From positions 1 to 64,000 of the IMG/VR virus record IMGVR_UViG_3300050821_004383: a stretch of 64,000 nt of DNA; one strand, 5' to 3'. The stretch is from a virus. Both the position numbers and the translations under genes were made by a program. Below, one piece after another: positions 1-34,541 of this stretch. The notes under the pieces were generated by a model. It did no database searches. It was not told the origin of the DNA and was given only the letters and a program-made list of their open reading frames with translations. How positions within the stretch are numbered: the first letter of the stretch is position 1; every line of letters starts with the position of its first letter.

Positions 1-2873
1 ATGCTGTCGGTCAAGAATGTCACGATACCTTGCGGCGTTCTAATCAAACGAACGACTGGCGCAAGAAAGGGTAGTTCATCGGAAGCGAGAAATGCCTCGT
101 TCGGATTCCCTACCGCCGTGTCTGGACCACCTGAGAACGGAACGCTTTGCCCGTTCGCTCCCCAGATGCGCTGATAGTTGTAAACCATCGGCAAGAATGT
201 TGGGAGCGGCGGGTTGTTTACGTTTCCAACCGGAGCCGGGAGAAGAACGTTCAAGCCCGGGTAGATGTTGTTCGCGACACTCGGTAGGAAGTCAGCAAAA
301 GACCAGTCAAACAAAACGCCCGTGTTTGCCAAGGACGGGATGTTAGGGATTTCCGTCAATTCAAACATGGTGCCAGCGCCGCTCGCCGTATCCGCAGAGC
401 GCCAGATGACGATTGTGTCAACCTGGGGGTCCGGCGAGTATCTGCCGCTAACCGTGTTTACGGAACCCGTGTTTGCGCCGACAATCTGATTTACGGGCGA
501 CGCAGAAGATATCGCATTCGTCCCAGAACCTTTCGGAGCACCGAGTGCGACTCCGCCAGGAGGAACTGCCCCGCCGCCCAAAGGTGTAGGAGAATAAAAA
601 TCACCCACAGAGCGAGCCTTATAACTGTACGCATATGCCAGTCCGAACTTCCACGCGAGAGAATTTGTTGTTATCACCGAGACTGCTTGCCACGTAATAG
701 TGTTGTCTGTCGTCGTAGGAGGGGTGCTGGTTACAGTTGACCACGCAGGAGCCGACCCGCCAGAAATACCTGAATTGATAACAGCTTGAACGTCTCCGCC
801 GCCGTTAACTTCTGAACCGCCGAACTGCTGCGAAGGTCCTGGTGGTTGAAAACCGACGCTCGGCAAGTTCCACGTCTGACCTGATGCCCAAGGAACGTTC
901 TGCCCCACGCAGGTCCACACGATGCCGCTGTCCGTTGTAGTGGTGCCGTATCCTGTTCCCCACACGCCGGAAGATGCCGACGCAGTAGCTGTTTCCACTA
1001 CTCCGTTCGGGTTTACAGCCGTGATGGAGTTTGATGTTGCCGACACGACTTTGAATGTGCCGTTGTTGCCCGCGTTAGCGAAACCAGAAAATGTAACTTG
1101 GTCGCCCGGGCTGGGAGTGAACGACCAGCTACCAGAACCGAGAGTGTAAATTGTGTTTCCACCAGAAAGAGAAGTCGTGATGCTCTGGCTCGTTGCTAGA
1201 GAAGTTCCCGGCTGGTGAGCACCGCTATGCCCTAATCCGGTAGTACTCGTGCAAACTTGAAAGTTCGTGCCATCAAATACGCAGCCGAAAGTTAAGCCTT
1301 GTGCGGACCACGGAACGTACGGGAAATTCGCCTGCCATGCAGCTTGTCCTAGATTCAACCACTGCACCTGTTTATCGTTTACGATGGTGCCTATGGGTGC
1401 CGACGCGGGAAACGGAGCGTATCCGGAACCGGAAGTTCCGCCTGTAGTCGGGATGAACAAATAAATCTTGGTGCCTGCTGCTGCCGGAAGATTTCCGGTT
1501 ACGATAAAATCAAGCGCTGTTTTTCCGCCCGATTGCCATCCCGCATACGTGTGCGATTGTTTCCAACGCATATTTGCCATCGCAGCGGTAGTTGCGTAAC
1601 TGCCGATTGCAAACCAGTGGGTGTTGTTGTCGAAGTATCCGCCGCTCGGACCTGGGAATGCGCCAGAGAAGTTAGGCTCGTGTCCCGCAGAGCCTGTGTT
1701 ACCGAGTCCGCCAGAGTTCTTGAAGTTGCCATAAAGCGCCTTCACGCTAGCTACTGCGATTGCAGCAGGGTCAGCAAAAGAAGGGGGAGGAGAATTTCCA
1801 AACCAGCCCATGTCGGTGAAGAACGTGTTCGGTGCCCAGTCGTTCAGCACACCAGCGTTTGTCCACGTTACAGTGCCATCAACGATGGTGTTTCCTTCTG
1901 ACGCCGCGTTTCCCCAGTTAGGCTCCCCCTGTCCAGTGATTCCAAACTGAGGCGTTGTTAAGTTTGTACCGTCCGCGTTCGTGCCAACGATTTGCCAAAT
2001 TTGAGGAGTAGCGTTCGTATCCTTCGTCAGCCCCATTGTCGAGAAGACAGTGGCGGCTTGCCACACGCTGGCCGCAGCGCCGGAAGGCGTTGACGTTACG
2101 GTAGGCTGAACGGACGGAGCCGTGATTCCCCAATTCCAAACTGTGCCATTCGCGTTTAACGGGGTGTACTTCTTCACGTCTATGCCGTCACCGAAGTAGA
2201 GCACGCCCGCAACTGAAAGGAAGTACGCTTGACCTGCGCCTACGCTCTTAGCGAAAATCAGCGTTGCGGTGCCGTCCTGGTTATCTCGGTATACGCCGCC
2301 CGATGTAACAGCCGTGGCAGCATGCGTTTCCGCGACGCCCCCTGAGTTTGCAAGAGTAAGCGTTGTTGCAGTGGACGCAGTAGCGGTGTAAGTTCCGTTG
2401 TTCGTTGTGTTTGTTACGAAGCCGTTGATGGAGAAAACTAGACCAGCAAGGCCGTTTGCAGCGCCTCCTGGGAACGTTCCGTTGTAAACGGTGGTTCCGG
2501 CTGAGGCGTTGTTGGCACTGGTGATTGCCAGCAATCCACTGGTGCCTGTGTCGATGATTACTTGAATTGACCCATCGGCTACTTGGAAAGAGAACGCGCG
2601 GTCTGGGGGCGTAGGGTAAGGAAAGCCGCTGCCGCCGAACGGAATCATGCCAGGACGACGCTGTAGTGTTAGACGGTTCGTTAACTCTATGTTACGGCCT
2701 GTTAGAAGCGCATCCGGACGACCGCCGTAGAATCTTGCGGTGTAAACGTCGGACGGGTCGTGCAGTATCGCACGCTGGGTATACAACCCGGTGAACGCGC
2801 GGTCCATGAAAATCGGCACGTATTTCGGCTGCTTTTGAGGGCTACCGCCGTTTGCTTCCAATAGAGTTGTCAT
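1..2873 (-). CDS. Large tail/neck structural protein (possibly P22 gp10/nozzle-like), runs off the window start
   Basis: Own translation from ATG at 2873 (MTTLLEANGGSPQKQPKYVPIFMDRAFTGLYTQR...NIELTNRLTLQRRPG); absent from the ORF track because the stop lies outside the window; follows head-completion genes; contains repeated 'GF..NNGTF' and 'W...TTD..V.W' modules. Confidence 0.6.
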   Translation of the reverse strand, partial: MTTLLEANGGSPQKQPKYVPIFMDRAFTGLYTQRAILHDPSDVYTARFYGGRPDALLTGRNIELTNRLTLQRRPGMIPFGGSGFPYPTPPDRAFSFQVADGSIQVIIDTGTSGLLAITSANNASAGTTVYNGTFPGGAANGLAGLVFSINGFVTNTTNNGTYTATASTATTLTLANSGGVAETHAATAVTSGGVYRDNQDGTATLIFAKSVGAGQAYFLSVAGVLYFGDGIDVKKYTPLNANGTVWNWGITAPSVQPTVTSTPSGAAASVWQAATVFSTMGLTKDTNATPQIWQIVGTNADGTNLTTPQFGITGQGEPNWGNAASEGNTIVDGTVTWTNAGVLNDWAPNTFFTDMGWFGNSPPPSFADPAAIAVASVKALYGNFKNSGGLGNTGSAGHEPNFSGAFPGPSGGYFDNNTHWFAIGSYATTAAMANMRWKQSHTYAGWQSGGKTALDFIVTGNLPAAAGTKIYLFIPTTGGTSGSGYAPFPASAPIGTIVNDKQVQWLNLGQAAWQANFPYVPWSAQGLTFGCVFDGTNFQVCTSTTGLGHSGAHQPGTSLATSQSITTSLSGGNTIYTLGSGSWSFTPSPGDQVTFSGFANAGNNGTFKVVSATSNSITAVNPNGVVETATASASSGVWGTGYGTTTTDSGIVWTCVGQNVPWASGQTWNLPSVGFQPPGPSQQFGGSEVNGGGDVQAVINSGISGGSAPAWSTVTSTPPTTTDNTITWQAVSVITTNSLAWKFGLAYAYSYKARSVGDFYSPTPLGGGAVPPGGVALGAPKGSGTNAISSASPVNQIVGANTGSVNTVSGRYSPDPQVDTIVIWRSADTASGAGTMFELTEIPNIPSLANTGVLFDWSFADFLPSVANNIYPGLNVLLPAPVGNVNNPPLPTFLPMVYNYQRIWGANGQSVPFSGGPDTAVGNPNEAFLASDELPFLAPVVRLIRTPQGIVTFLTDS

Positions 2874-9467: not shown

Positions 9468-10766
9468 TTAGACTTTGACGCCATAAGAGCGTAATTTCGC
9501 CGCGTATTGCGGGTCCTTTACGCGTCTCTTCATTTCTTCTGGCTTCTGTTTCAGAAAATCTTGGAGAAATTCCTTTCTCGTAAGTGCCGGGTCTGGCGTT
9601 CCTGGTCTTTGTGCGCTCAAAGAACCTGGAGCGATGCCCCCGTTCACTCCCGGACGACGGGTCGCTGGTTGCACATTAGGTGCGGCGACAGGCGTCGGAG
9701 CCGTTGCTTCAACCGGAGGCGCGACGACGGCCACGGGTTGTGCGGGTACTACAGATGATGGCACTGCAACTGGCGTTTCCGCTCCCGGGATTGCCGGGGC
9801 TACGGGCGTTGTTGGAGTGGCGGTTGGTGTCGGATTAGCGACCTCAACAGCTTGTCTTGTTGCCACGGTTTCCACCTTGGCAAGTTTGTCACCCTGGTCG
9901 AAGAGGTCTTGAAATGCGGCCTCCAAGTTGTCCAAGGTATAATCTAGGTTGTGCTTTTCGAGATATTCCCCGAGGGCCTTGTTGTTGGCCTCGCACGGGT
10001 TATAATCGTGAAGGTGATTGCGCATGAACGTATTCGCGATTGTGCGACCGTCCTCGCGCCACTGCTTTTCCTTCAACTCTCGTTCTCTCTGCTGATACTC
10101 AGTCTCGATGACCTGATGAATGACATCGGTGACCTTAGCTGAGTCCTTCGACTCCAAAGCGATTCGCGCTGCTTCCGCGATTGCTTCCGGAGACAAAACT
10201 GTTTTCTCTTGCTTGAACGTCAGCTTCTGCTGCTTCAAGCGATGAAACGCGCGAGTCGCCTGGGTGTGAACCTCGCGCTTCTTAGCGAGGAACTCCGGGA
10301 GCGTACGCGCTTCCAAGTGTGTCGGGCGTCCGATAGCCTTGCCATCTTCGCCTACGACCTGATATTCTTCAACGTAACGGCTGACTACGCCGTTCGCGTC
10401 GCGAAGTACGGTGATGCCTAACTTCTTCAATTCTGAATCTTCTGCCTCGTACGGCTTTACGACGGGCACGGGTACAGTTTCCACTGGCACTGGCGGGACT
10501 TCCGCGACGACAGGCTGTGCGGCCATTGTCTGCGCTTCCGCTGCGAGTGCTTCCGTTGAGGGAGGAACTGTGCGAGCTAACTGGGAATCAACCTCAGCCT
10601 CTCGGGTCTGAGCCTCTAGCATCAGCTTAGAGATGTGAGTAGCTACTCCGCTACCACGGTCTCCCATCAGCTTCTGCATATCGGCTGCGGTCTTTGGGTC
10701 TTTCACGGCGGCAAAGATGGACTTCAAGTCCATTGCCAGCACGGCTTCGCGAGTTATTGAACTCAT
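9468..10766 (-). CDS. Capsid scaffolding protein
   Basis: Helical, P/A/V-rich, between portal and capsid genes. Confidence 0.7.
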   Translation of the reverse strand: MSSITREAVLAMDLKSIFAAVKDPKTAADMQKLMGDRGSGVATHISKLMLEAQTREAEVDSQLARTVPPSTEALAAEAQTMAAQPVVAEVPPVPVETVPVPVVKPYEAEDSELKKLGITVLRDANGVVSRYVEEYQVVGEDGKAIGRPTHLEARTLPEFLAKKREVHTQATRAFHRLKQQKLTFKQEKTVLSPEAIAEAARIALESKDSAKVTDVIHQVIETEYQQRERELKEKQWREDGRTIANTFMRNHLHDYNPCEANNKALGEYLEKHNLDYTLDNLEAAFQDLFDQGDKLAKVETVATRQAVEVANPTPTATPTTPVAPAIPGAETPVAVPSSVVPAQPVAVVAPPVEATAPTPVAAPNVQPATRRPGVNGGIAPGSLSAQRPGTPDPALTRKEFLQDFLKQKPEEMKRRVKDPQYAAKLRSYGVKV

Positions 10767-24015: not shown

Positions 24016-24051
24016 CAAAGAAAAAGGCGCACCCGTTAAGATGCGCCTTTT
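24016..24051 (-). terminator. Rho-independent terminator
   Basis: AAAAGGCGCA..TGCGCCTTTT hairpin with T tract. Confidence 0.75.
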
Positions 24052-24609: not shown

Positions 24610-24684
24610 TGGTTCCGGCGTGTGGATTCGAACCACAATTAGCGGATTCAGAGTCCGCAGTCCTGCCAGTTAAACGACATCGGA
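24610..24684 (-). tRNA. tRNA-Gln(CTG)
   Basis: Cloverleaf, loop CTCTGAA, encoded CCA. Confidence 0.9.
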
Positions 24685-24793
24685 ACAGAAATTGGAGCGG
24701 TGTCCTCGTACTCACTAGAGCGATGGGGTCCTTCTCACCTAGGCACTCACCGCCGAGTGTACTCCCAGATTACCAGACCTACGATTACGAAAT

Positions 24794-24869
24794 TGGTTGG
24801 ATGCGAAGGATTCGGACCTTCATCTGACTGATTCAAAGTCAGCCGTGTTGCCAGTTACACCAGCGTCCA
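24794..24869 (-). tRNA. tRNA-Gln(TTG)
   Basis: Loop CTTTGAA; T-loop TCCGAAT; CCA. Confidence 0.9.
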
Positions 24870-24878
24870 ACAGAAAAT

Positions 24879-24953
24879 TGGTCCTACACCGTGGAATCGA
24901 ACCACGTACGCCCGCCGTTTCAAGACGGCGCTCTACCAATGAGCTAGCGTAGG
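24879..24953 (-). tRNA. tRNA-Phe(GAA)
   Basis: Stem CCGTC/GGCGG, loop TTGAAAC; CCA. Confidence 0.85.
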
Positions 24954-24954
24954 A

Positions 24955-25041
24955 TGGAGGAAGAAGATGAAATCGAATCATCAACCCGCTAGAGTTGGCC
25001 TAGTGTTCGAAACTAGTTGAGCGCCTTGCTCACCATCTTCC
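24955..25041 (-). tRNA. tRNA-Ser(CGA)
   Basis: Loop TTCGAAC, long variable arm; CCA. Confidence 0.85.
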
Positions 25042-25511
25042 AAAACTTTTCTACGAATACGGTCTTTGTAATTCTTCTCACACTCGATGCAATCACGACG
25101 AAGACCGTTCCAATTAGTTCTATTCTTTGCAAATCTATCAACAGAGAAGAACTGTTTATGTGTTCGACACCAAGCCTTGCCTTCTGGTGGTGTTATACGA
25201 TTACAACTGGGTTTTCCCAGTGAACCTTGAATGTGGGGTGTATTACAACGCGTGTGAGAAAATGTCACATTATCTAAATCCCAAAACAACTCAGGAGAGC
25301 GATTCTCCCAAGGACGAATGTGCTCAATACTCAAATCATCAACAGACTCAATCATCTTACCACACTTCACACAAACACTGTCACCGTATTTTTGTAATTG
25401 ACGAAACAAAATCATCTTACGAAGACGATTTGCCGCTGCTCCGTGGGACATACCAAGTTGTTCTGCAATTCTAGCACTGCGTGCTGCATGTGATGCGTGT
25501 GAGTTACCCAT
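24981..25511 (-). CDS. HNH homing endonuclease
   Basis: Likely start MGNSHASH; 'CVKC...SIEHIRPW...NVTFSH..CN' plus C-terminal Cys domain; stop lies inside tRNA-Ser(CGA). Confidence 0.85.
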   Translation of the reverse strand: MGNSHASHAARSARIAEQLGMSHGAAANRLRKMILFRQLQKYGDSVCVKCGKMIESVDDLSIEHIRPWENRSPELFWDLDNVTFSHTRCNTPHIQGSLGKPSCNRITPPEGKAWCRTHKQFFSVDRFAKNRTNWNGLRRDCIECEKNYKDRIRRKVLEDGEQGAQLVSNTRPTLAG

Positions 25512-25551
25512 CGTCGTTGGCTCCTTTAAGCACTTGACTGATGTTTTCAAA

Positions 25552-25638
25552 TGGCGGATGATGAAGGAATCGAACCCTCTCGACCTTTCAGTCGGGACAG
25601 TTTTCAAGACTGCTGCTCCCCATGAAGCCCAATCATCC
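25552..25638 (-). tRNA. tRNA-Ser(TGA)
   Basis: Loop CTTGAAA, long variable arm; CCA. Confidence 0.85.
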
Positions 25639-25646
25639 GTAAAAAT

Positions 25647-26003
25647 TTAGGCTACTTTCTTCGCCTTGCGAATCTTCAAATAGTTTCTCACAGGAAACGT
25701 CATCGTGCCCGCTGCGCATGCAAACGGAAGCCATGAGTGTGCCGCGTCAACCACGCCCGCGTATCCGGATGCTGCTAGAAACGCTAGCACGATTGCCGGA
25801 CGAAGGACCCCGGCGTCCAAAAACGTACGGAACGGGTGAGCCTTCTCGGTGAACCACTTCATCAATTTGTTGCCTTCGGTCTGGCCGTAGTACCAGATGC
25901 CCCAGCGGGTCACAAACACATCTGTCAACATCGCCACGTACCAAAGAACGGCAGCGAAGTTGTAAGTAAAGTCTCCGTTCGGAAGCGTGCGGGGGTCGAA
26001 CAT
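25647..26003 (-). CDS. Membrane protein
   Basis: Start MFDPRT; 'D..T..G.....E.N' with hydrophobic helices; resembles the adjacent ORF. Confidence 0.55.
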   Translation of the reverse strand: MFDPRTLPNGDFTYNFAAVLWYVAMLTDVFVTRWGIWYYGQTEGNKLMKWFTEKAHPFRTFLDAGVLRPAIVLAFLAASGYAGVVDAAHSWLPFACAAGTMTFPVRNYLKIRKAKKVA

Positions 26004-26011
26004 TCGGTCTC

Positions 26012-26323
26012 CTAAACTGGTATCTTCAAATTTCTGATAGCTTCTCTGATGTGCGCGTACCCGGCTTGAAATGCAAAGCCTGCTGCCATCACGTAGCCCG
26101 CGTAAACCGAGAAACGATTCGCTAACAACCCAACCGCAACCTCGCCCGCGATAACAAGAGTGCCCAAGCCATAAACCTTCAATGTGCTGGGTCTGGGTCC
26201 GAACAGCCACGCTGTGTCGGCTTCGTAGTAGTCCGGATTCTTCAAGAACCGAACTGTTGTCCATCCATCGAATAATGCCGCGCCGGATAAAACCACCGAC
26301 GCCACTACTAGTGGTATGTTCAT
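26012..26323 (-). CDS. Membrane protein
   Basis: Start MNIPLVV; three hydrophobic segments, 'DGWTT...YYEAD'. Confidence 0.55.
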   Translation of the reverse strand: MNIPLVVASVVLSGAALFDGWTTVRFLKNPDYYEADTAWLFGPRPSTLKVYGLGTLVIAGEVAVGLLANRFSVYAGYVMAAGFAFQAGYAHIREAIRNLKIPV

Positions 26324-26328
26324 AAAAT

Positions 26329-26414
26329 TGGCGGAACGAGGAGGAGTCGAACCTCCACGTGCTTTCACACGCTGGTTTAGCAAACCAGTCCGGCTACCGT
26401 TTCGGCACCGTTCC
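26329..26414 (-). tRNA. tRNA-Ser(GCT)
   Basis: Loop TTGCTAA, long variable arm; CCA. Confidence 0.9.
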
Positions 26415-26457
26415 AGAAAATGTGGGGCGACCGGAGCCGCCCCGATTTTGTCTCAGA

Positions 26458-28140
26458 TTAAACCTCTACCGTAATACGAGGATTCGTCGGTGCGGCTGGT
26501 GGTGCTGGCGGCACGTTCGGTCCTGATGGCGGTAGCGATATCTGTACGCTTACCTCTGGCGGGTCTAGTGAAACCCACGTCACTGTGTTGTCCTGTGTGA
26601 TGGTATTCAACACTGGAGAGAACACTGGACGATGGGCTGCGTCACTGCTGATACCCGGAACAGAGACTTGCTGAAACGATTGGCTAACGCAATCGAATAC
26701 GATGTCCCCAACGTTGAACTGCTTGTTAGGAGCATAAACCGATAGCGTTGCGGATAAGAACATGACAACTGAATCAGTGTCCAGTGTCACTGCGCCTACG
26801 CGAGCCAGCAATCTGCCGTTGACTCTTACGCCCGTGTTAACGGTGATAGACGCTTGAGCCATGATTGTCCCGGAGAAGTTCGTTCCAACTCCGAGTGTTG
26901 CAGAACTGCCGACTTGCCAGAAAATGTTCGCCGCTTGTGCGCCGCCTAGCAATACGATGTTGCTGTTGCTAGCAGCGGTTGTAAGCGTTGAACCAATTTG
27001 AAAAATGAAAACCGCGTTCGGGTCTCCTAGTCCATCGAGAACCAGGGTCCCGGTGATGCCTACCGAACTTGCGTTCTTATAAACACCCGGTGTGAGAGTC
27101 AACCCGCCTAAATCACCCGGGAGAGCCGTGAACGGACTGCCGCTGGATGTGAGTCCAGAAGCCGATGCCGTTGCTGTCTCCGCCGTTGCTGCTGGGTTCG
27201 TCAACGTGATTGCTGTAATCGTCTGGGCTATGCAAACGAACGTTCCGTTGTTGGAAGCGTTAGTAAAGCCTGTGACCGTGAATCTTTGTCCAACTAGAGC
27301 GTTTCCTGCTGGGAAGGTTCCCACGTATGATGTATTTCCGAATGCGTCTGGTGCAGCAACGGAAGTTACAGGATACGGGCCTGTTGCAGAAAAACCGCCT
27401 ATGCCCGAAGGATTAACAGCGGATGCGGCTGCATTGTAAGCCGTTGTTAGTGCGGCCTGCGCTGCTGCTGCAACGAAGTCCCCGGCGTGAAACACGCCCG
27501 AGATTGCTGCTGGTGCTCCGAAACCAGTGATTGAAGTTCCCGGCCAAACTCCCACGTCACCCGCGACGGTTGTTGCGCCCGTGTTGGTGACAGTAGAACC
27601 TGCCAAGATTTCAAAACTGTTTGCCACTCCCACGTTTGGTGGGGTTGGGCTGGGACCGAACGGAACAGCGACGGAAAGAACGCCGACCGAGTTAGCACTT
27701 GAAATGCCGCCTGCGACCGATTCAATCTCGTAGCTGTAAACGTGGCCCGGGACAACTCCGAAATCCTCAAAGAACGGATTCGGTGTAGCAAGCGCCGAGT
27801 GTACCTCTGCGGTTGCGAACGAACTATTTAGTGTCAACGTTGTCGCAGAAGACGCGACGCATTGAAACTGCCCGTTGTTCGCGGAGTTACCGAAACCTGT
27901 AACGCGGAACACCAATCCTACGAAGGCGTTTGCTGCGCCACCGCTGATAACTCCAGTGTAAACGGCTTGACCGTTAGCGGACTGGGATACCGAGGATAAG
28001 ACGAGCGCTGGTCCTTGCTCAATCAGGCCAACGTTGTACGGAACTAAACTCTCATTTCCGGGTGCTGTACCACGGAAAATGTTGTAGCCATCGACCAGGG
28101 ACGGACTTGGGTCCCATGAGATGGTAATAGAATGTGTCAT
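26458..28140 (-). CDS. Ice-binding-like protein (DUF3494) fused to FN3 and virion modules
   Basis: 'FEILAGSTVTNTGATTVAGDVGV.PG', 'DLGGLTLTPGVY', 'GDPNAVFIFQIGSTL', 'AQAANIFWQVGSSATLG', 'NGRLLA..GAVTLD'. Confidence 0.9.
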   Translation of the reverse strand: MTHSITISWDPSPSLVDGYNIFRGTAPGNESLVPYNVGLIEQGPALVLSSVSQSANGQAVYTGVISGGAANAFVGLVFRVTGFGNSANNGQFQCVASSATTLTLNSSFATAEVHSALATPNPFFEDFGVVPGHVYSYEIESVAGGISSANSVGVLSVAVPFGPSPTPPNVGVANSFEILAGSTVTNTGATTVAGDVGVWPGTSITGFGAPAAISGVFHAGDFVAAAAQAALTTAYNAAASAVNPSGIGGFSATGPYPVTSVAAPDAFGNTSYVGTFPAGNALVGQRFTVTGFTNASNNGTFVCIAQTITAITLTNPAATAETATASASGLTSSGSPFTALPGDLGGLTLTPGVYKNASSVGITGTLVLDGLGDPNAVFIFQIGSTLTTAASNSNIVLLGGAQAANIFWQVGSSATLGVGTNFSGTIMAQASITVNTGVRVNGRLLARVGAVTLDTDSVVMFLSATLSVYAPNKQFNVGDIVFDCVSQSFQQVSVPGISSDAAHRPVFSPVLNTITQDNTVTWVSLDPPEVSVQISLPPSGPNVPPAPPAAPTNPRITVEV

Positions 28141-28334
28141 GAACTGCTCCTTGCACGCAATAAACTACATGCGCGTTGGGAGCAACGTGATACCCAGCTA
28201 GCTGACGCAACCACAATCCTGATTGTCGCACTCTATGGCGAGAGCGCGAGGACCGGACACATTCATTTTCAGTCACTTCCAAAGAAGTGAACCAAAAGGG
28301 AAGGAGGCTTTAACTCCGACTGACTACCTGATGC

Positions 28335-28439
28335 TTACTTCTTTGGATTACTTACACAAAATTTGCAAACTGGTCTTCTGTGAGGATGGCTGTAAATTAG
28401 TTCCTCTGCCAGTTTCTTGCATACGGGGCACATCTTCAT
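28335..28439 (-). CDS. Tiny Zn-finger protein
   Basis: Own translation MKMCPVCKKLAEELIYSHPHRRPVCKFCVSNPKK; GGAGG RBS. Confidence 0.5.
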   Translation of the reverse strand: MKMCPVCKKLAEELIYSHPHRRPVCKFCVSNPKK

Positions 28440-28533
28440 GGCTGTCACCTCCAGCCATAATACTACCACACCCGTGGTACCGCGTCTGTTCAATATTGGA
28501 CAGTACTGTTAATACAAGACACTTATCTAAAAT

Positions 28534-28609
28534 TGGCAGGTCATGAGGGATTCGAACCCCCACCGCATCGTTTTGGAGACGAGCATGCAACCAGTAACAC
28601 TTATGGCCT
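28534..28609 (-). tRNA. tRNA-Trp(CCA)
   Basis: Loop CTCCAAA; CCA end. Confidence 0.9.
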
Positions 28610-28618
28610 GTTGAAAAT

Positions 28619-28706
28619 TGGTGGAAAGTCGAGGACTCGAACCTCGGAAGCCCACAAGGGGCATCTGGTTTACAGCCAGAAGCAATTGCCGCTATGCGAA
28701 CCTTCC
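28619..28706 (-). tRNA. tRNA-Tyr(GTA)
   Basis: Loop CTGTAAA, long variable arm. Confidence 0.9.
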
Positions 28707-28778
28707 ACAATGCTAGTTGCGCCTCGGTGGCTCTATGGACTGCTCTCACCGATATGTTTAATGTCACAGCGCAAAACT

Positions 28779-28852
28779 TGGAGCCTCGTCGAGGAATCGG
28801 ACCCCGGCGTTCGCTTTACGAAAGCGACGTACTGCCACTATACTAACAAGGC
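28779..28852 (-). tRNA. tRNA-Thr(CGT)
   Basis: Loop TTCGTAA; T-loop TCCGATT. Confidence 0.9.
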
Positions 28853-28861
28853 TCGGAAAAT

Positions 28862-28935
28862 TGGAGCGAAATGCGGAAATCGAATCCGCGCCTGGACCTT
28901 GGCAAGGTCCCGTTCTGCCACTATACCAATCTCGC
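28862..28935 (-). tRNA. tRNA-Gly(GCC)
   Basis: Loop TTGCCAA; U73. Confidence 0.9.
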
Positions 28936-28947
28936 CCAGAAAATTTG

Positions 28948-29019
28948 CCGACCGTATTAGCCGTTATACGGACCCAGGTTGTTGAGACCCAGGAGAGGAT
29001 TCGAACCTCAAATCGTCGG
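28948..29019 (-). ncRNA. Circularly permuted tRNA-like RNA (YrlA/Y-RNA-like architecture)
   Basis: Order: CCGAC, T arm (TGAGG TTCGAAT CCTCT), closed acceptor hairpin (CCTGGGT/ACCTGGG), D arm (CGTA..TACG), GTCGG. Confidence 0.7.
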
Positions 29020-29081
29020 ACTTCTCGGACGCGTGGCTGGCCGTGTCACAGCCCTTTGGACTCGCGCTACCCGATTAGTAT

Positions 29082-29157
29082 TGGAGCACAATCGTGGATT
29101 CGAACCACGGTGACCGAGGTACAAGCTCGGTATATTGGACCGCTATATGAATCGTGC
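29082..29157 (-). tRNA. tRNA-Thr(TGT)
   Basis: Loop CTTGTAC. Confidence 0.9.
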
Positions 29158-29158
29158 T

Positions 29159-29232
29159 TGGAGCTTCGACGTGGAATTGAACCACGACTTGTTCCTTACC
29201 AAGGAACCGTTCTGCCGTTAGACTATCAAAGC
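29159..29232 (-). tRNA. tRNA-Thr(GGT)
   Basis: Loop TTGGTAA. Confidence 0.9.
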
Positions 29233-29243
29233 TCGGAAATTAT

Positions 29244-29708
29244 TTAGGCGTGGTCACCCTTGTCGCCCTTATCGCCTTTGTCACCCTTGTCGCCACGGTC
29301 GCCCTTGTCTCCTTTATCACCCTTGGAGCCTACTGCGCCGTCCTTGCCATCGACGCCTTTATCGCCTGCGTCGCCCTTATCACCTTTGTCGCCCGGGTCG
29401 CCCTTCAAACCGTGTACGCCGTTCTCGCCTGGGTCGCCCTTGTCGCCCTTCAAGCCATGCTCACCGTTGGTGCCAGCATCGCCTTTGTCGCCCTTCGGGC
29501 CGACTGGGCCGGGTACGCCTTGTGGTCCCACAGGGCCTTGGAGACCTTGTGCGCCGACCGGACCCGCGATACCGCGCGGACCTAGAGGGCCTGCTTGACC
29601 TGCCGGACCTGCTGGTCCGACGTGCTTCTTCAAACTCAAAATGAATGCAGCTACAGACACTGCGGCTGTAACAGCAGAAACCAATTCAGCGGGGGCAATC
29701 ATTGGCAT
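29244..29708 (-). CDS. Membrane-anchored collagen-like protein
   Basis: Start MPMIAPAEL (AAGGAG RBS); N-terminal hydrophobic helix then GXY repeats (GDKGDK). Confidence 0.85.
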
Positions 29709-29734
29709 CTCCTTATTTTTAACTTCTACAAAAT

Positions 29735-29810
29735 TGGAGCGGCGAACGGGATTCGAACCCGTACGTTCTGCTTGGAAGGCAGACATGCTAGCCGTTAACA
29801 TCACAGCCGC
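29735..29810 (-). tRNA. tRNA-Gly(TCC)
   Basis: Loop CTTCCAA. Confidence 0.9.
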
Positions 29811-29818
29811 TTTGAAAT

Positions 29819-29897
29819 TGGTTGCGGAGGTGGGATTTGAACCCACGATAACAAGGTTATGAGTCTTGTGTTTTAGACCAGGCTAAACTACCCCGCT
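29819..29897 (-). tRNA. tRNA-Met(CAT), initiator-like
   Basis: Loop CTCATAA; 1:72 mismatch. Confidence 0.85.
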
Positions 29898-29907
29898 ATA
29901 GAAAATT

Positions 29908-29983
29908 TGGTTCTGGTCGCTGGATTCGAACCAGCTACCTTCCGCTTATCGAGCGGACGCCCGTCCACATGTGCTCGACCAGA
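29908..29983 (-). tRNA. tRNA-Ile(GAT)
   Basis: Loop TCGATAA (C33). Confidence 0.85.
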
Positions 29984-29991
29984 ACAGAAAT

Positions 29992-30067
29992 TGGTGGACC
30001 GTTCCGGCTCTGCCCCGGACGCCTCGGAGGTGCAAGCTCCGCGTTCTCCTGAATGAACTAACAGCCC
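29992..30067 (-). tRNA. tRNA-Ala(TGC)
   Basis: Loop CTTGCAC; G3:U70 present; atypical T-loop GGCAGAG. Confidence 0.85.
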
Positions 30068-30071
30068 AAAA

Positions 30072-30491
30072 TCATCGTCCACGTTTAGTATCGTGGCACT
30101 CTTTACAGTTTATTTGAAACCCACTCCAACGAGTTTCTTTCTTATAAAAGTTATCCACCGGAAGAAACTGCTGATGACCACCGCACCATGACGTGCCTTC
30201 TGGTCCAACAAACTTTCGTAAACTGCCTCCGTGATGCACATGGGGACGATTACATTGTAAATGCGAGAACGCTATATTATCCAAATCCCAAAAGAGTTCA
30301 GCAGAACGACCTTCCCATGGAAGCTTATGCTCTATGCTTAACTCTTCTACGACTAAAATCTCTTTGTTGCACTTGAAACAAATATTTTCTTTCAACTTTT
30401 TCAAAAGATGAAACAAAATATTCTTTCTTAATCTTCCATTGGCCGTGCCGTGAGGCATGCCTAGCGTTGCAGCTTTCTGCGTATTACTCAT
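30072..30491 (-). CDS. HNH homing endonuclease
   Basis: 'CFKC...SIEHKLPW...NIAFSH..CN'; paralogue of 24981-25511. Confidence 0.85.
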   Translation of the reverse strand: MSNTQKAATLGMPHGTANGRLRKNILFHLLKKLKENICFKCNKEILVVEELSIEHKLPWEGRSAELFWDLDNIAFSHLQCNRPHVHHGGSLRKFVGPEGTSWCGGHQQFLPVDNFYKKETRWSGFQINCKECHDTKRGR

Positions 30492-30529
30492 AATCGTTAA
30501 CCCTCTTTGGGTTGTTGATTAAGTTAAAT

Positions 30530-30606
30530 TGGTACTCGCGGCGGGATTTGAACCCGCGTTCTTGGCTTGAAAGGCCAGCGTCCTGGGCCGACTAGACGAC
30601 ATGAGC
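30530..30606 (-). tRNA. tRNA-Glu(TTC)
   Basis: Loop CTTTCAA. Confidence 0.9.
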
Positions 30607-30689
30607 ACTACATGCGCCGATACAATTCGCTTTTTGGGGAAGTGGCTTTATGCATTTATAGCCAATCCGATAATTGTATCGTACGAACT

Positions 30690-30765
30690 TGGTAGCGTCG
30701 GCGGGATTTGAACCCGCGTGACCAGATTGAGAATCTGGCATCCTAGACCACTAGATGACATCGCC
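30690..30765 (-). tRNA. tRNA-Glu(CTC)
   Basis: Loop TTCTCAA. Confidence 0.9.
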
Positions 30766-30773
30766 ACAGAAAT

Positions 30774-30866
30774 TGGTTGTCAGCCTCGGTGCCGACCCGA
30801 GTCGTCGCGCTAATCAGGCGCTCTCCTCGACTTATAAGGTCGAGCCGCATGCCGATGCTGCCGACA
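30774..30866 (-). tRNA. Atypical tRNA with TAT (Ile) anticodon and long variable arm
   Basis: Acceptor TGTCGGC/GCTGACA+ACCA; 6-bp anticodon stem, loop CTTATAA; V-arm GCGC..GCGC; T-loop GTCGGCA. Confidence 0.7.
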
Positions 30867-30954
30867 AAAGGCTGGGCCGACGGGGAATCTAACCCACAAT
30901 GGGGCAGCCTCTGGCGTTCCTTCCAGCGCATCCCATCACTCGTCCCAGAGAAAT

Positions 30955-31030
30955 TGGTAGCTCGTAAGAGAATCGAACTCTTCCTATCCGGGTGTAGGCC
31001 GGATGCATACGACCAGTTTGCTAACAAGCT
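30955..31030 (-). tRNA. tRNA-Val(TAC)
   Basis: Loop CCTACAC (C33). Confidence 0.85.
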
Positions 31031-31037
31031 ACAGAAA

Positions 31038-31154
31038 TCAACGGTGGTAATAATGAATCCAGAGAACCAGGGCACTCGCGCTAATCACTACCCCCAGGAT
31101 GTTGCACACTGTCCGTATCAGTGCCATCCACTGGTCGAATGTTAGCCTTTTCAT
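31038..31154 (-). CDS. Small membrane peptide
   Basis: Own translation MKRLTFDQWMALIRTVCNILGVVISASALVLWIHYYHR. Confidence 0.45.
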   Translation of the reverse strand: MKRLTFDQWMALIRTVCNILGVVISASALVLWIHYYHR

Positions 31155-31341
31155 TGTCCTTCTTCTTTGTTCTGGTCTCGTACCACTTTCTTCTCAACCC
31201 CAAGTATTCGAGTTGAGCCTTCAAACTTTCTTCCGCTGCGTGGCGCATCGCGCGGTCATCGCGCCAAATGCCCACCAGGAAGTACAACGCGACTAAGTCA
31301 ACTACCAACGCCGCAACCGAAGCTACGTTCGCTATAGTCAT
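31081..31341 (-). CDS. Small membrane-anchored protein
   Basis: 86 aa with N-terminal hydrophobic helix. Confidence 0.5.
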   Translation of the reverse strand: MTIANVASVAALVVDLVALYFLVGIWRDDRAMRHAAEESLKAQLEYLGLRRKWYETRTKKKDNEKANIRPVDGTDTDSVQHPGGSD

Positions 31342-31435
31342 ATTCGCTCACAAAGTTGTGCCCCAACTAGTAACTTCAACAGACCGTCAGGGTCTTGCCG
31401 CGCGTATCTGCTAGTTTACTCGGCGCGGAAAAATT

Positions 31436-31511
31436 TGGTCGAGCGCCAGAGACTCGAACTCTGACCCTACCCGTTAAAAGCGGGATATGCTGCCCCTAAC
31501 ACCTGCACTCG
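31436..31511 (-). tRNA. tRNA-Lys(TTT)
   Basis: Loop CTTTTAA. Confidence 0.9.
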
Positions 31512-31796
31512 ACGGTATTTCTTTGTGAAACTGTGTCCAAGCGCCTTAGTCAACTCTTCGTGGCACTCTTGACATTGCAGTTCACATTTCAAAACTTCTT
31601 TCCAAAACTTTTCATCTGAATACGAAGAACCATCAGCGAGTGTGAACTCTTTTGTTTCCGGGTCCTTGTGATGAAACTGTAATTCTTCTTGCGACCCGCA
31701 AGTCTCGCACCGCGTTCCAAGAAACATGATTGCGCGAATGCGACGAAGTTGCCAGCGGCGCTTCATGTACTCATTCATGTATTCATTTGTACTCAT
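31467..31796 (-). CDS. HNH endonuclease
   Basis: 'CETCG...LQFHHKDP..K...KCELQCQECH'; stop lies inside tRNA-Lys(TTT). Confidence 0.85.
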   Translation of the reverse strand: MSTNEYMNEYMKRRWQLRRIRAIMFLGTRCETCGSQEELQFHHKDPETKEFTLADGSSYSDEKFWKEVLKCELQCQECHEELTKALGHSFTKKYRRVQVLGAAYPAFNG

Positions 31797-31802
31797 AAAA
31801 AT

Positions 31803-31879
31803 TGGTGCGCCGCCTCAGACTTGAACTGAGACCAAGCCTCCTTAAGAGGGAGGTATTCTGCCGCTCGAAATCGCAGCGC
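31803..31879 (-). tRNA. tRNA-Lys(CTT)
   Basis: Loop CTCTTAA. Confidence 0.9.
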
Positions 31880-31892
31880 ACTGAAAATTATT

Positions 31893-32187
31893 TGGTTGCG
31901 CTATAGCCCGGTTTCTGTCGAGGACGAACATTCCTCTAAGCACGCTACCCGCTCGTCATCCTGCTCAATAAGCAGTCAGAGCCTATTTGCGCTTGCACCC
32001 GTGTGGAGTGCCTTCGCTCGAATGAGGGTTTCCAACATGTGAAGATGGATAACCCTACGAAGCCTTACCCGAATCCTTGCGGACCCCGCATCTTCCACGG
32101 CACGGTGTTGAGATGTGACCGGAACTTCCTCGCTGACGTTTAGCCACTATCCGGACTCATACGCCATCGCGTTCGTCTACGCTACCA
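31893..32187 (-). ncRNA. rnpB: Phage-encoded RNase P RNA
   Basis: CR-I GAGGAAGTTCCGGT and CR-V ACAGAAACCGGGCT form P4 with bulged U; P2 GACGAAC/GTTCGTC; P1; GGTGCAAG; P15 with GGT; P16/P17. Confidence 0.9.
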
Positions 32188-32300
32188 AAATTAATCCGGG
32201 GGAGGTTTTCGTTACCCGTCCCGGCACCCAAACGATTCGACTAGTCTACTTCGAGTGTTGCCCACAAGGGGCACCCCCGCACGTGTAGGGCCGACAAACT

Positions 32301-32377
32301 TGGACTCCTCGGCTAGACTGTAACTAGCTAAGAGCGGGTTTGCAATCCGCCGTCTCGACATCTTCGACATCGAGGAG
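32301..32377 (-). tRNA. tRNA-Cys(GCA)
   Basis: Loop TTGCAAA; U73; atypical T-loop TTACAGT. Confidence 0.85.
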
Positions 32378-32382
32378 AAACT

Positions 32383-32468
32383 TGGTGCGCCGCACAGGAT
32401 TCGGACCTGTACGCCATTTCTGGCCGGGGGTTTTAAGTCCCCTACGTCTGCCGTTCCGCCAGCAGCGC
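32383..32468 (-). tRNA. tRNA-Leu(TAA)
   Basis: Loop CTTAAAA, long variable arm. Confidence 0.9.
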
Positions 32469-32522
32469 AATATCTACCCGGCTTGCTGTATATCCTTCAA
32501 CAGTGTTCGCCACCGGGAATCT

Positions 32523-32611
32523 TGGTCGCCCGCCCCGGAGTCGAACCGGGACTCTACTTTATTCGAACCGCGTTTTGAGTGCGGCGCGTCTGCCAGTTCC
32601 GCCAGCAGGCG
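32523..32611 (-). tRNA. tRNA-Leu(CAA)
   Basis: Loop CTCAAAA, long but weakly paired variable arm. Confidence 0.85.
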
Positions 32612-32613
32612 AT

Positions 32614-32688
32614 TGGTAGCCCATGAAGGACTCGAACCTTCATCGCTTGATTCGTAGTCAAGCATCCTATCCATTGAACGAACAGGCC
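32614..32688 (-). tRNA. tRNA-Arg(ACG)
   Basis: Loop CTACGAA. Confidence 0.9.
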
Positions 32689-32698
32689 ACTGTAAAAT

Positions 32699-32776
32699 TG
32701 GAGGCCCCGGTCGGATTCGAACCGACTTTTGTACGGGTTAGAACGCCGTTGAGATATCCATTTTCTCGACGGAGCC
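32699..32776 (-). tRNA. tRNA-Arg(TCT)
   Basis: Loop GTTCTAA, C31:C39 mismatch, A20 present. Confidence 0.75.
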
Positions 32777-32785
32777 TCTGAAACT

Positions 32786-32872
32786 TGGTGGGCCGCGAGG
32801 GATTCGAACCCCCACGCTTTTCACGGCACTGGTTTCTAAGACCAGCATGTCTGCCAATTCCATCAGCAGCCC
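32786..32872 (-). tRNA. tRNA-Leu(TAG)
   Basis: Loop CTTAGAA, long variable arm. Confidence 0.9.
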
Positions 32873-33027
32873 ACAGAAATCCTGGCGGTATTTGTCATCG
32901 CGCCCCGCCGGAAGCGCATCGGATGATGTTTAGTCACCGAGAGTTTTGCCCCTTACCAGTGCACGAGGCCACGCACCCAGTAGCTAGCTGGGGATGTTTA
33001 ACTCTCTGTTGCAACGTCGTACAAAAT

Positions 33028-33101
33028 TGGTCAGGAATCGTGGAATCGAACCACGGCCTCATGCTTCCGACGCACGTAGACTACCACTATCAGAATACCT
33101 G
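33028..33101 (-). tRNA. tRNA-Pro(CGG)
   Basis: Loop GTCGGAA. Confidence 0.85.
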
Positions 33102-33110
33102 ACGTAAAAT

Positions 33111-33185
33111 TGGCTCCATCCCTAGGATTCGAACCTAGACCTGTTCGGTTAACAGCCGAGCGTCCTACCGTTGGACCAGAATGGA
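33111..33185 (-). tRNA. tRNA-Asn(GTT)
   Basis: Loop CTGTTAA. Confidence 0.9.
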
Positions 33186-33192
33186 ACTGAAC

Positions 33193-33573
33193 TCAATGCC
33201 CGGTAGTTTGATATTTTATTCGACGACGTTCTGTTGTGTACACTTTTCTCATGTACCCAGCAACTTGTCCTCTTCGAACTCGTATCGCTTCTTCGGGCGA
33301 ATACTTTCTTCTAATTCGACGGGCATCTGTGTTGCAGGCTCTGTGACTGAAAGCGATGTTCTCCAAAGAGAAGAACACGGTCCTCGGGTCACTGCTGTGC
33401 AACCACGGCTCTTTGTGGTCTATCGAGAGGTCTCGACTTTCCGCAATTTGCTTACCGCATCGAAAACAAAAATCTCTTTTCACTTCCTTCACTAACCCGA
33501 AAAGAATTTCTTTTCTAAGTTGGTGACAGGCTGTTCCAAACGGAACACCTAATTGCTGTTGTTTCTTATCCAT
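33193..33573 (-). CDS. HNH homing endonuclease
   Basis: 'CFRC...SIDHKEPW...NIAFSH..CN'; third paralogue. Confidence 0.85.
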   Translation of the reverse strand: MDKKQQQLGVPFGTACHQLRKEILFGLVKEVKRDFCFRCGKQIAESRDLSIDHKEPWLHSSDPRTVFFSLENIAFSHRACNTDARRIRRKYSPEEAIRVRRGQVAGYMRKVYTTERRRIKYQTTGH

Positions 33574-33670
33574 TCAAACCATCCTTTAAGATGGTTCGAA
33601 TCCGATACTGTACCAGCCACTCGGTTTAAGTCCGAGAACTTTTACAACCCGGGCGTTACTCCGGTGAAAT

Positions 33671-33748
33671 TGGCGGTCCATACGGGATTTGAACCCGTGG
33701 TCTTCTCCGTGACAGGGAGACGAGGACTCCTGACTCCTCCAACAGACC
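33671..33748 (-). tRNA. tRNA-Asp(GTC)
   Basis: Loop CTGTCAC. Confidence 0.9.
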
Positions 33749-33757
33749 GCAGAAAAT

Positions 33758-33836
33758 TGGTCGAGGAACCTGGATTTGAACCAGGGGTCTCATGCTTCCA
33801 AAGCACGCGGGAACGGCCAGACTTCCCCATTCCTCG
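33758..33836 (-). tRNA. tRNA-Pro(TGG)
   Basis: Loop TTTGGAA. Confidence 0.9.
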
Positions 33837-33999
33837 AAAAATTTCTCGCTTTCCTCAGCGTCGCCACTTAAGGCTAGGTGGACTATCTGCGAGATGCTGA
33901 CCCGTCACTGGGCCACTTGATTCTTTAGTTGACCGTGTAAATGCCGGGTCCCATCGGTGTTGCTCGTCCCAAACTCTCTGTGTCTTTCATCGTGAAACC

Positions 34000-34028
34000 A
34001 TCCTAGCACAGTTCTCGAACTTTGTCAA
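34000..34028 (-). promoter_or_regulatory. Sigma70 promoter driving the tRNA array
   Basis: TTGACA-17-TAGGAT with TG extension. Confidence 0.75.
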
Positions 34029-34047
34029 GCACTATTTTCGAGAATCT

Positions 34048-34362
34048 TTACTTCTTCGAATAAGCGCGGCCTGGGTAGTTACGAGCGTATGCGTGAGCGT
34101 CGTCTCCCGGCTGCTCGGTCTGCTTGCCGATGTGCTCCATGCTGCACGGCAATCCCTTGTGGGAACCGTTGGCGCTTACGCCCATCGAGTTCGAACGTCC
34201 GGCCTTCAATGCGGCTGCATCGTGAGAAGTCTCGTGACGAACCTTCTCGGCCTTGGGTGTGCTACGGCCTGGATACTTGTGCGCGTGCGGCTGGTCGTGG
34301 GTCATCACTGTCTCGGGTGCGTGGGCCATGCCCGCCGCTGTCTTTTCGCTGTACTTCGCCAT
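34048..34362 (-). CDS. Hydrophilic hypothetical protein
   Basis: 104 aa, internal repeat 'HA....YPGR'. Confidence 0.55.
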   Translation of the reverse strand: MAKYSEKTAAGMAHAPETVMTHDQPHAHKYPGRSTPKAEKVRHETSHDAAALKAGRSNSMGVSANGSHKGLPCSMEHIGKQTEQPGDDAHAYARNYPGRAYSKK

Positions 34363-34424
34363 TTTCTCATTCCTCGCGTTGCCTCACCTTTCGGTACGGG
34401 GCACGCTTCGTACTTCTAAATTTT

Positions 34425-34501
34425 TGGGGTGGGTGATGGGTCTCGAACCCACTCTGGCCCGATTCACAGTCGAGCGCGTCACCTGTTTCGCCTCACTCAC
34501 C
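34425..34501 (-). tRNA. tRNA-His(GTG)
   Basis: Loop CTGTGAA; encoded G-1 and C73. Confidence 0.9.
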
Positions 34502-34512
34502 ATCGTAGAAAT

Positions 34513-34541
34513 ACTCTACCACGGAAGCGGAGCGTTGTCAA
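34513..34541 (-). promoter_or_regulatory. Sigma70 promoter upstream of tRNA-His
   Basis: TTGACA-17-TAGAGT with TG extension. Confidence 0.7.

Follow-up and report, generated by a model that had tools for sequence, protein, structure and literature searches.

A class A-type RNase P RNA gene with a reduced specificity domain in the tRNA array of a soil phage

An RNase P RNA gene within a phage tRNA array

The window analysed here comprises the first 64 kb (64,000 nucleotides) of the IMG/VR record IMGVR_UViG_3300050821_004383, which is 98,515 bp long and rated 97% complete. Among its coding sequences are those of a portal protein and a large terminase, and the carrier is a ~100-kb soil phage. 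The RNA gene under study and the features around it are as follows.

31888-32188, minus strand: phage RNase P RNA gene, 301 nt, class A-derived (RF00010 match and covarying relatives)
24610-34500, minus strand: same-strand array of 30 called tRNA genes, with the ribozyme inside it (ARAGORN, Rfam)
31803-31879, minus strand: tRNA-Lys(CUU), starting 8 nt after ribozyme P1
32301-32377, minus strand: gene resembling tRNA-Cys(GCA), with an acceptor stem of 7 bp, T-loop UUACAGU and terminal UCCA (read from the sequence)
34513-34541, minus strand: promoter-like TTGACA-17-TAGAGT with TG (extended -10) at the upstream end of the array (consensus match only)
34000-34028, minus strand: second promoter-like site (consensus match only)
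24022-24051, minus strand: strong terminator-like hairpin where the array ends downstream, 13 bp and a T run (consensus match only)

A scan of the window with an E-value threshold aligned this RNA with RF00010, the model of bacterial class A RNase P RNA, over model positions 1-367 (92.5 bits, E 9.8e-29); class A was the best match within the clan, and lower-scoring clan matches were dropped. Judged by this E-value, homology of the window RNA to bacterial class A RNase P RNA is beyond doubt. The score lies below the RF00010 gathering cut-off of 100 bits, a curated threshold and no biological feature, and routine annotation is therefore left without a phage RNase P gene; a default Rfam scan of the window returned tRNAs only. 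A blastn search in 'distant' mode with positions 31700-32500 found no match among 50,697 GenBank phage records. The first-pass annotation had set the limits of the gene at 31893-32187; the gene is indeed there, with the model extent running from 31888 to 32188 instead.

CCA is encoded by all 30 called tRNAs, which fits the GGU retained in L15 of the ribozyme. The Cys-like gene upstream of the ribozyme was called by neither ARAGORN nor Rfam, and the same slot holds a normal tRNA-Cys(GCA) in most relatives. About 112 nt (32189-32300, minus strand) separate it from the ribozyme, and the whole 194-nt spacer folds no better than its shuffles (z -0.31). The number of promoter-like sites in the array region is not above chance.

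The same setting recurs throughout the family: in all 33 relatives the RNase P RNA lies in a same-strand tRNA array, and no opposite-strand tRNA was found at the family loci. The gene order is mostly tRNA-Cys(GCA), RNase P RNA, tRNA-Lys, and in a subclade tRNA-Arg(CCU), RNase P RNA, tRNA-Ser(GCU). At 17 of 34 family loci no more than 9 nt separate P1 from the start of the next tRNA, and at six loci 2 nt lie between the end of the previous tRNA and P1. The array of one relative (L037, 278-378, plus strand) also contains a weak match to the Y RNA-like YrlA (32.7 bits, cut-off 69), echoing a permuted tRNA mimic that the first-pass annotation had described in the window.

The catalytic domain

Three segments hold the conserved landmarks of the catalytic half.

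32118-32131, minus strand: CR-I and the P4 5' strand, GAGGAAGUUCCGGU, with the bulged U at 32123 (GAGGAA invariant, n=33; register from the model)
31905-31918, minus strand: CR-V, ACAGAA followed by the P4 3' strand ACCGGGCU (model alignment and covariation)
31942-31992, minus strand: P15-P16-P17, with the L15 motif CGGGUAG at 31945-31951 and the P6 3' strand at 31965-31969 (pairs covary)

P1-P5, P7-P11, P15-P17 and the P4 and P6 pseudoknots are all present in the window RNA. In the RF00010 alignment, P1 and P2 are aligned, P3 is long, and CR-I with the P4 5' strand reads GAGGAAGUUCCGG. The start of P10/P11 follows P9, and after it come the 3' strands of P11, P10, P7 and P5 and then GCAA. The 3' part runs through P15-P16-P17 with CGGGUAG, J18/2, the P2 3' strand, ACAGAA, the P4 3' strand ACCGGGCU and the P1 3' strand. 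The earlier claim of a phage RNase P RNA with an intact catalytic core is thus borne out by a match to the full model in which the core helices are present: every helix that had been named (P1, P2, P3, P4, P5, P7 as CCGUG/CACGG, and P15-17 with its GGU) is found in the alignment. So is the stated absence of P18, which is a clean 0-nt deletion in the window RNA, while a few relatives carry a short hairpin in its place.

P4 of the window RNA is AG[U]UCCGGU paired with ACCGGGCU, in the register A-U, G-C, U.G, bulged U and five further pairs. The bulged U of P4 is universally conserved in RNase P RNA. Here it is found in 33 of 33 sequences, within a helix of 8 pairs in which 99.6% of cells are paired and 3 pairs show compensatory change (pair types C-G/A-U/U-A/G-C and U-A/A-U/C-G/G-C). 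The class A arrangement of this helix, flanked by a CR-I like GAGGAAAGUCCGG and a CR-V like ACAGAA-CCGGCUUA, is seen in the phage RNA, and so are the class A-specific features of the 3' part, namely the P6 pseudoknot between J5/7 and L17 and P15-P16-P17 with the L15 GGU. P6 is paired in 95.7% of cells, UCAAC/GUUGA giving way to UAAAC/GUUUA, UCGAC/GUCGA and CGGAC/GUCCG in relatives; the pairs of P15-17 covary as well, and CGGGUAG is invariant (n=33). By alignment and covariation, the catalytic domain of the phage RNase P RNA is complete.

Relatives and selection

A terminase search yielded 35 related viral loci. When RF00010 was run over 16 TerL-related records, an RNase P RNA was found in 7 of the 16 (78-102 bits, two above the cut-off), among same-strand tRNAs in all seven; one of these carriers is a complete 111,567-bp genome with terminal repeats. 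A sequence pattern on L15 and CR-V gave 30 viral loci. Six of them (L055, L060, L061, L063, L068 and L070) did not match RNase P even with the threshold at E 1e-4 and were dropped; L059 and L067 were without a match at the gathering score. A family-specific pattern, CATTSRAG...CAAATAGG...CGGGTAG, retrieved 42 metagenome stretches, with ~36 full-length members (nhmmer). The complete or near-complete carriers of 100-105 kb have terminases 36-45% identical to that of the window phage, and TerL identity across the carrier phages is only 36-75%. Since the carriers share TerL, the RNase P RNA tracks one phage clade. Most members score under the Rfam cut-off, and current phage annotation therefore misses them. 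At one further locus, in a 78.5-kb viral record (L049, 10293-10636, minus strand), a 344-nt RNase P RNA match of 80.5 bits was observed; a search of its surroundings (14.5 kb, E 1e-4) detected no tRNA, unlike at all the others.

We aligned 33 distinct sequences from viral and metagenome contigs (260-398 nt, mean column identity 46%; MAFFT, nhmmer) and scored 70 hand-placed pairs, both pseudoknots included. Pairing is seen in 95.1% of 2300 cells, against 35-39% when the partners are slid by 1-3 columns, and 49 of the 70 pairs show compensatory change on both sides, against 14-21 when slid. The covariation score of 0.471 compares with at most 0.076 for slid partners and was reached by none of 500 shuffles. 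Both pseudoknots, P4 and P6, covary (n=33), and GAGGAA, the bulged U of P4, the AA of GCAA, CAAAUAGG, CGGGUAG, AGA-G-AU and ACA-AA are invariant (n=33). Such pairing and compensatory change across 33 sequences indicate that the gene is under selection.

Among representative genomes covering 185,579 species of bacteria and archaea, the family pattern hit five loci, all in MAGs. Four of them are full-size type A RNAs (306-329 bits), and their P14 3' strand accounts for the motif in the alignments displayed; L120, the fifth, did not match at the gathering score. The reduced form was not found in these genomes by the pattern, and the search gave no clue to the host.

A reduced specificity domain

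The specificity (S-) domain lies between the two strands of P7.

31999-32105, minus strand: reduced specificity domain, P7 5' strand to P7 3' strand (supported by P7, P8, P9 and P11)
32071-32100, minus strand: P8 (loop GAAGA) and P9 (GNRA loop GCAA) (model alignment and covariation)
32026-32055, minus strand: P12 hairpin (GGGUU...AACCC), of variable length in the family (hairpin in 31 of 32 relatives)
32017-32025, minus strand: J12/11 junction UCAUUCGAG, core A-U-U-S-R-A-G, in which UUCGA fits U-N-N-R-A
32004-32016, minus strand: P11 3' strand (CGAAG), internal loop and P10 3' strand (P11 pairing)

P7 is 98.8% paired and all five of its pairs covary, as do all five of P9; the loop of P8, UGGAAGNUG, is invariant (n=33). 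P10 has 3 bp, the first being G.A in 28 of 33 sequences, and is set off from P11 by an internal loop of UAAGG opposite GCACU. P11 has 5 bp, is 99.4% paired and covaries at 5 of 5 positions, with CUUCG/CGAAG here and CUCGA/UCGAG, CUCGG/CCGAG or GCUGG/UCAGC elsewhere. P12 closes into a hairpin in 31 of 32 relatives, with a length between 10 and 69 nt; the exception is L048, which has none. At that locus (2247-2542, minus strand) a 14-nt loop closes P11, with AAUUCGAG still inside it.

The CR-II and CR-III junctions of bacterial RNase P RNA form interleaved T-loops that bind the tRNA elbow. Neither CR-II (J11/12, ACAGAAA-like) nor CR-III (J12/13, GUGAAA-like) is seen in the window RNA, their model positions, like those of P12, being deleted or taken up by insert states, and P13, P14 and P18 of class A are missing too. 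J11/12 is ~2 nt long (UA or UG) across the 33 sequences, and CR-II has therefore been lost. The 3' junction reads (U)CAUU-S-R-AG throughout the family, with A166, U167, U168, A171 and G172 invariant in 33 sequences, and its pentamers UUCGA, UUCAA and UUGGA fit the U-N-N-R-A rule for T-loops. Judged by this fit, the J12/11 pentamer may be the sole survivor of the two interleaved elbow-binding T-loops.

The first-pass annotation took the ~105 nt inside P7 for a replaced specificity domain of crossing helices. The insert is there, at a length of 97 nt, and CR-II and CR-III are indeed unrecognisable in it. A search with the Rfam model, which had been expected to match the core and align poorly with the S-domain, matched the core and left the CR-II/CR-III region unmatched, but it aligned P8-P11 to type A. 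Two of the supposed crossing helices pair as described and have ordinary names: CTTCG/CGAAG is P11, and GGGTT/AACCC is the stem of P12. The third, GAAGATG/CATCTTC, joins the P8 loop to the P12 loop. Its 7 nt of complementarity are real in the window RNA and were reached by none of 200 shuffles of the insert, but no such complementarity above chance was found in the relatives. A conserved L8-L12 kissing interaction was rejected, as relatives are without it and three of them have only a 10-12-nt P12; the pairing is private to the window phage or due to chance. By homology of P7-P12 to type A, the S-domain is a reduced class A domain that has lost P13, P14 and both junction motifs.

It had further been suggested that this domain is tuned to tRNAs with odd elbows. 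T-loops of the canonical form UUCRA are present in 27 of the 30 tRNAs in the window and the D-loop GG in 30 of 30. The other three T-loops read UCCGA, with C replacing T54:

24794-24869, minus strand: tRNA-Gln(UUG)
28779-28852, minus strand: tRNA-Thr(CGU)
32383-32468, minus strand: tRNA-Leu(UAA)

With ordinary T-loops in 27 of 30 tRNAs this rationale is weak, and the same reduced S-domain occurs beside tRNAs that score as ordinary in the relatives. The idea keeps some plausibility, since odd tRNA-like genes do exist in the array.

We therefore regard it as unlikely that the S-domain has been replaced by a new crossing-helix fold gripping odd-elbow tRNAs and tRNA mimics. The missing CR-II and CR-III, the 7-nt L8-L12 complementarity, the three UCCGA T-loops and the Cys-like tRNA with T-loop UUACAGU just upstream would all suit such a fold. 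Set against them are the alignment and covariation of P7-P11 as type A helices, the lack of L8-L12 pairing in 31 relatives (one of which has no P12 at all), the ordinary T- and D-loops of most of the tRNAs and the normal tRNAs near the relatives' ribozymes.

A probable tRNA-processing ribozyme and its likely protein partner

No coding sequence for Ribonuclease_P (PF00825) was found in the 97%-complete record of the window phage or in 13 other RNase-P-bearing viral records, 9 of which are at least 90% complete; in control searches PF00825 was found in 10 of 14 reference genomes. With no phage rnpA detectable, the use of host RnpA is plausible, and the earlier suggestion that the host supplies the protein subunit was a reasonable one. 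The phage RNA likely uses host RnpA, and a novel phage protein may serve as cofactor instead.

Taken together, the sequence data make it highly probable that the locus encodes a functional RNase P RNA subunit, of class A descent, within the tRNA operon of a clade of ~100-kb tailed phages. The ribozyme would be co-transcribed with the tRNAs on one long minus-strand transcript and freed by processing of the neighbouring tRNAs, its 3' end being set where RNase P cuts the following tRNA at its 5' end, 8 nt further on. Once freed it would join host RnpA, a pairing proposed because the phage encodes none, and the holoenzyme would trim the 5' leaders from the CCA-encoding pre-tRNAs of the phage. Because the S-domain is trimmed to P7-P12 and AUU-S-R-AG, substrate binding would lean on pairing of L15 with CCA, on contact of the protein with the leader and possibly on one T-loop-like element. 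Apart from the called gene positions, we infer all steps of this scheme from the sequence. Absence of CR-II and CR-III weakens substrate affinity in bacterial enzymes; this counts against the reading as a working gene, as does the score below the cut-off (92.5 versus 100).

A non-catalytic mimic, whose protein-binding core soaks up host RnpA or pre-tRNA and so slows or regulates host tRNA maturation, would also be consistent with the weakened S-domain and with the failure to find a phage protein subunit. We consider this very unlikely: the residues of the chemistry (the P4 bulged U, the A-rich J3/4, ACAGAA and the CCA-pairing L15 GGU) are invariant, a decoy needs no covarying P6, L15 or S-domain helices, and the 30 or more pre-tRNAs of the phage itself need RNase P activity. 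That the gene is a decaying passenger, a piece of host rnpB acquired with tRNA genes and now drifting, is hardly credible in spite of the sub-cut-off score and the deletion of P18 and large parts of the S-domain, because covariation and invariant letters rule out a drifting pseudogene (49 of 70 pairs compensatory, 95% of cells pairing), the 33 distinct copies come from phages with TerL 36-75% identical and, at 46% mean column identity, are no assembly duplicates, and the pattern search of representative genomes of 185,579 species met no such form.

Retaining the working ribozyme as the preferred reading, we lean, with moderate confidence, towards a wider proposal from these sequences: RNase P ribozymes may be regular components of the large tRNA operons of tailed phages, and those of this clade may have had the substrate-reading domain pared by evolution to one conserved T-loop-like junction (AUU-S-R-AG) on a P10-P12 stalk and still be active with the host protein.

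Biological significance

RNase P is the endonuclease that removes the 5' leader from pre-tRNA, with RnpA as cofactor, and to our knowledge it is treated as a universal cellular ribozyme. The parts of the translation apparatus known to be carried by phages include tRNAs, tmRNA and synthetases. Searches of the open-access full-text literature brought up no paper on an RNase P RNA encoded by a phage or other virus, and a phage-borne one appears to be undescribed in print. A virus-borne copy under structural selection would add the enzyme of tRNA 5'-end maturation to the translation parts of phages and, if the reading is true, would be the first viral RNase P. The family also supplies dozens of naturally occurring, covarying RNAs that have lost the elbow-binding junctions and kept the catalytic half untouched. 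With these it becomes testable how far RNase P needs its S-domain, and what the pairing of CCA with L15 and the protein can compensate for.

Comparison with known RNase P RNAs

With the class A RNAs, such as E. coli M1 RNA (rnpB) and the P RNA of Thermotoga maritima, the phage RNA shares P1-P5, P15-P17 and the P4 and P6 pseudoknots, along with CR-I, CR-IV, CR-V, the bulged U of P4 and the GGU of L15. It keeps P7-P11 of the class A S-domain, including a GNRA-capped P9. It differs in size (260-385 nt, against about 350-400 for class A), in having no P13 or P14 and, in most members, no P18, in the loss of CR-II and the replacement of CR-III by AUU-S-R-AG, and in lying inside a tRNA array with no rnpA alongside. 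Class B (RF00011) is marked by P5.1, P10.1 and P15.1 and by the lack of P6, P16 and P17, whereas in the phage RNA P6, P16 and P17 are present and covary.

Bacterial constructs reduced to the catalytic domain are catalytically active with protein, and so is the S-domain-poor type T RNA of Pyrobaculum. The type T RNAs of Pyrobaculum and other Thermoproteaceae and the engineered C-domain-only 'mini' P RNAs thus resemble the phage RNA in that they cleave pre-tRNA, with protein, on little or no S-domain. Type T RNAs belong to archaea and are without almost all of the S-domain, P8-P12 included, whereas the phage RNA is of bacterial type, with P7-P12 (P7-P11 covarying, P12 in 31 of 32 relatives), P6, P16-P17 and the L15 GGU.

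Among cellular RNase P RNAs the loss of P12 is highly unusual, type T being the case cited for it, and loss of P13, P14 and P18 is not unusual in bacteria (PMC8172020). Occasional loss of P12 is recorded, and the RNase P RNAs of the candidate phyla (CPR) needed lowered Infernal thresholds for their detection (PMC8172020). By their description there, the reduced CPR class A RNAs are like the phage RNA in the loss of P13, P14 and P18, and member L048 of the phage family is without P12. The CPR RNA is the sole chromosomal rnpB of its cell; the phage RNA is an additional copy with a viral carrier. That carrier is the unusual feature of the phage RNA, in combination with the retention of P7-P12 without either junction motif.

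Viral counterparts are four RNase P RNAs (299-375 nt) in larger, unrelated records.

L046, 12987-13316: viral RNase P RNA
L047, 7064-7438: viral RNase P RNA
L056, 1102-1400: viral RNase P RNA
L058, 1836-2135: viral RNase P RNA

The records are 168, 456, 332 and 176 kb long, respectively, and rated complete, and their RNase P RNAs, at 167-191 bits, pass the Rfam cut-off. They have no TerL similarity to the window phage and no 16S rRNA, and a Terminase_6N domain was confirmed in one of the four. About 2.2 kb from the RNase P RNA of L046, within the same tRNA cluster, there is also a tmRNA gene (10443-10753, minus strand, 89 bits). The P4 variant AG-U-UC, which the window RNA has in common with L046 and L056, is a mixed signal as to common descent of the phage P RNAs: the canonical AAAGUC is found in L047 and L058 and, within the family, in L095. 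Like the window RNA, the four RNAs lie in same-strand tRNA arrays, have no P13 or P14 and are not accompanied by rnpA. Unlike it, they keep CR-II ACAGAGACGAG, P12, CR-III GGGUGAAA and P18. From these sequences the window family seems to have been reduced one step beyond this form, and, if that is true, the fuller phage forms and the window family would belong to a natural series of deletions marking out the smallest S-domain that an RNase P RNA can tolerate.
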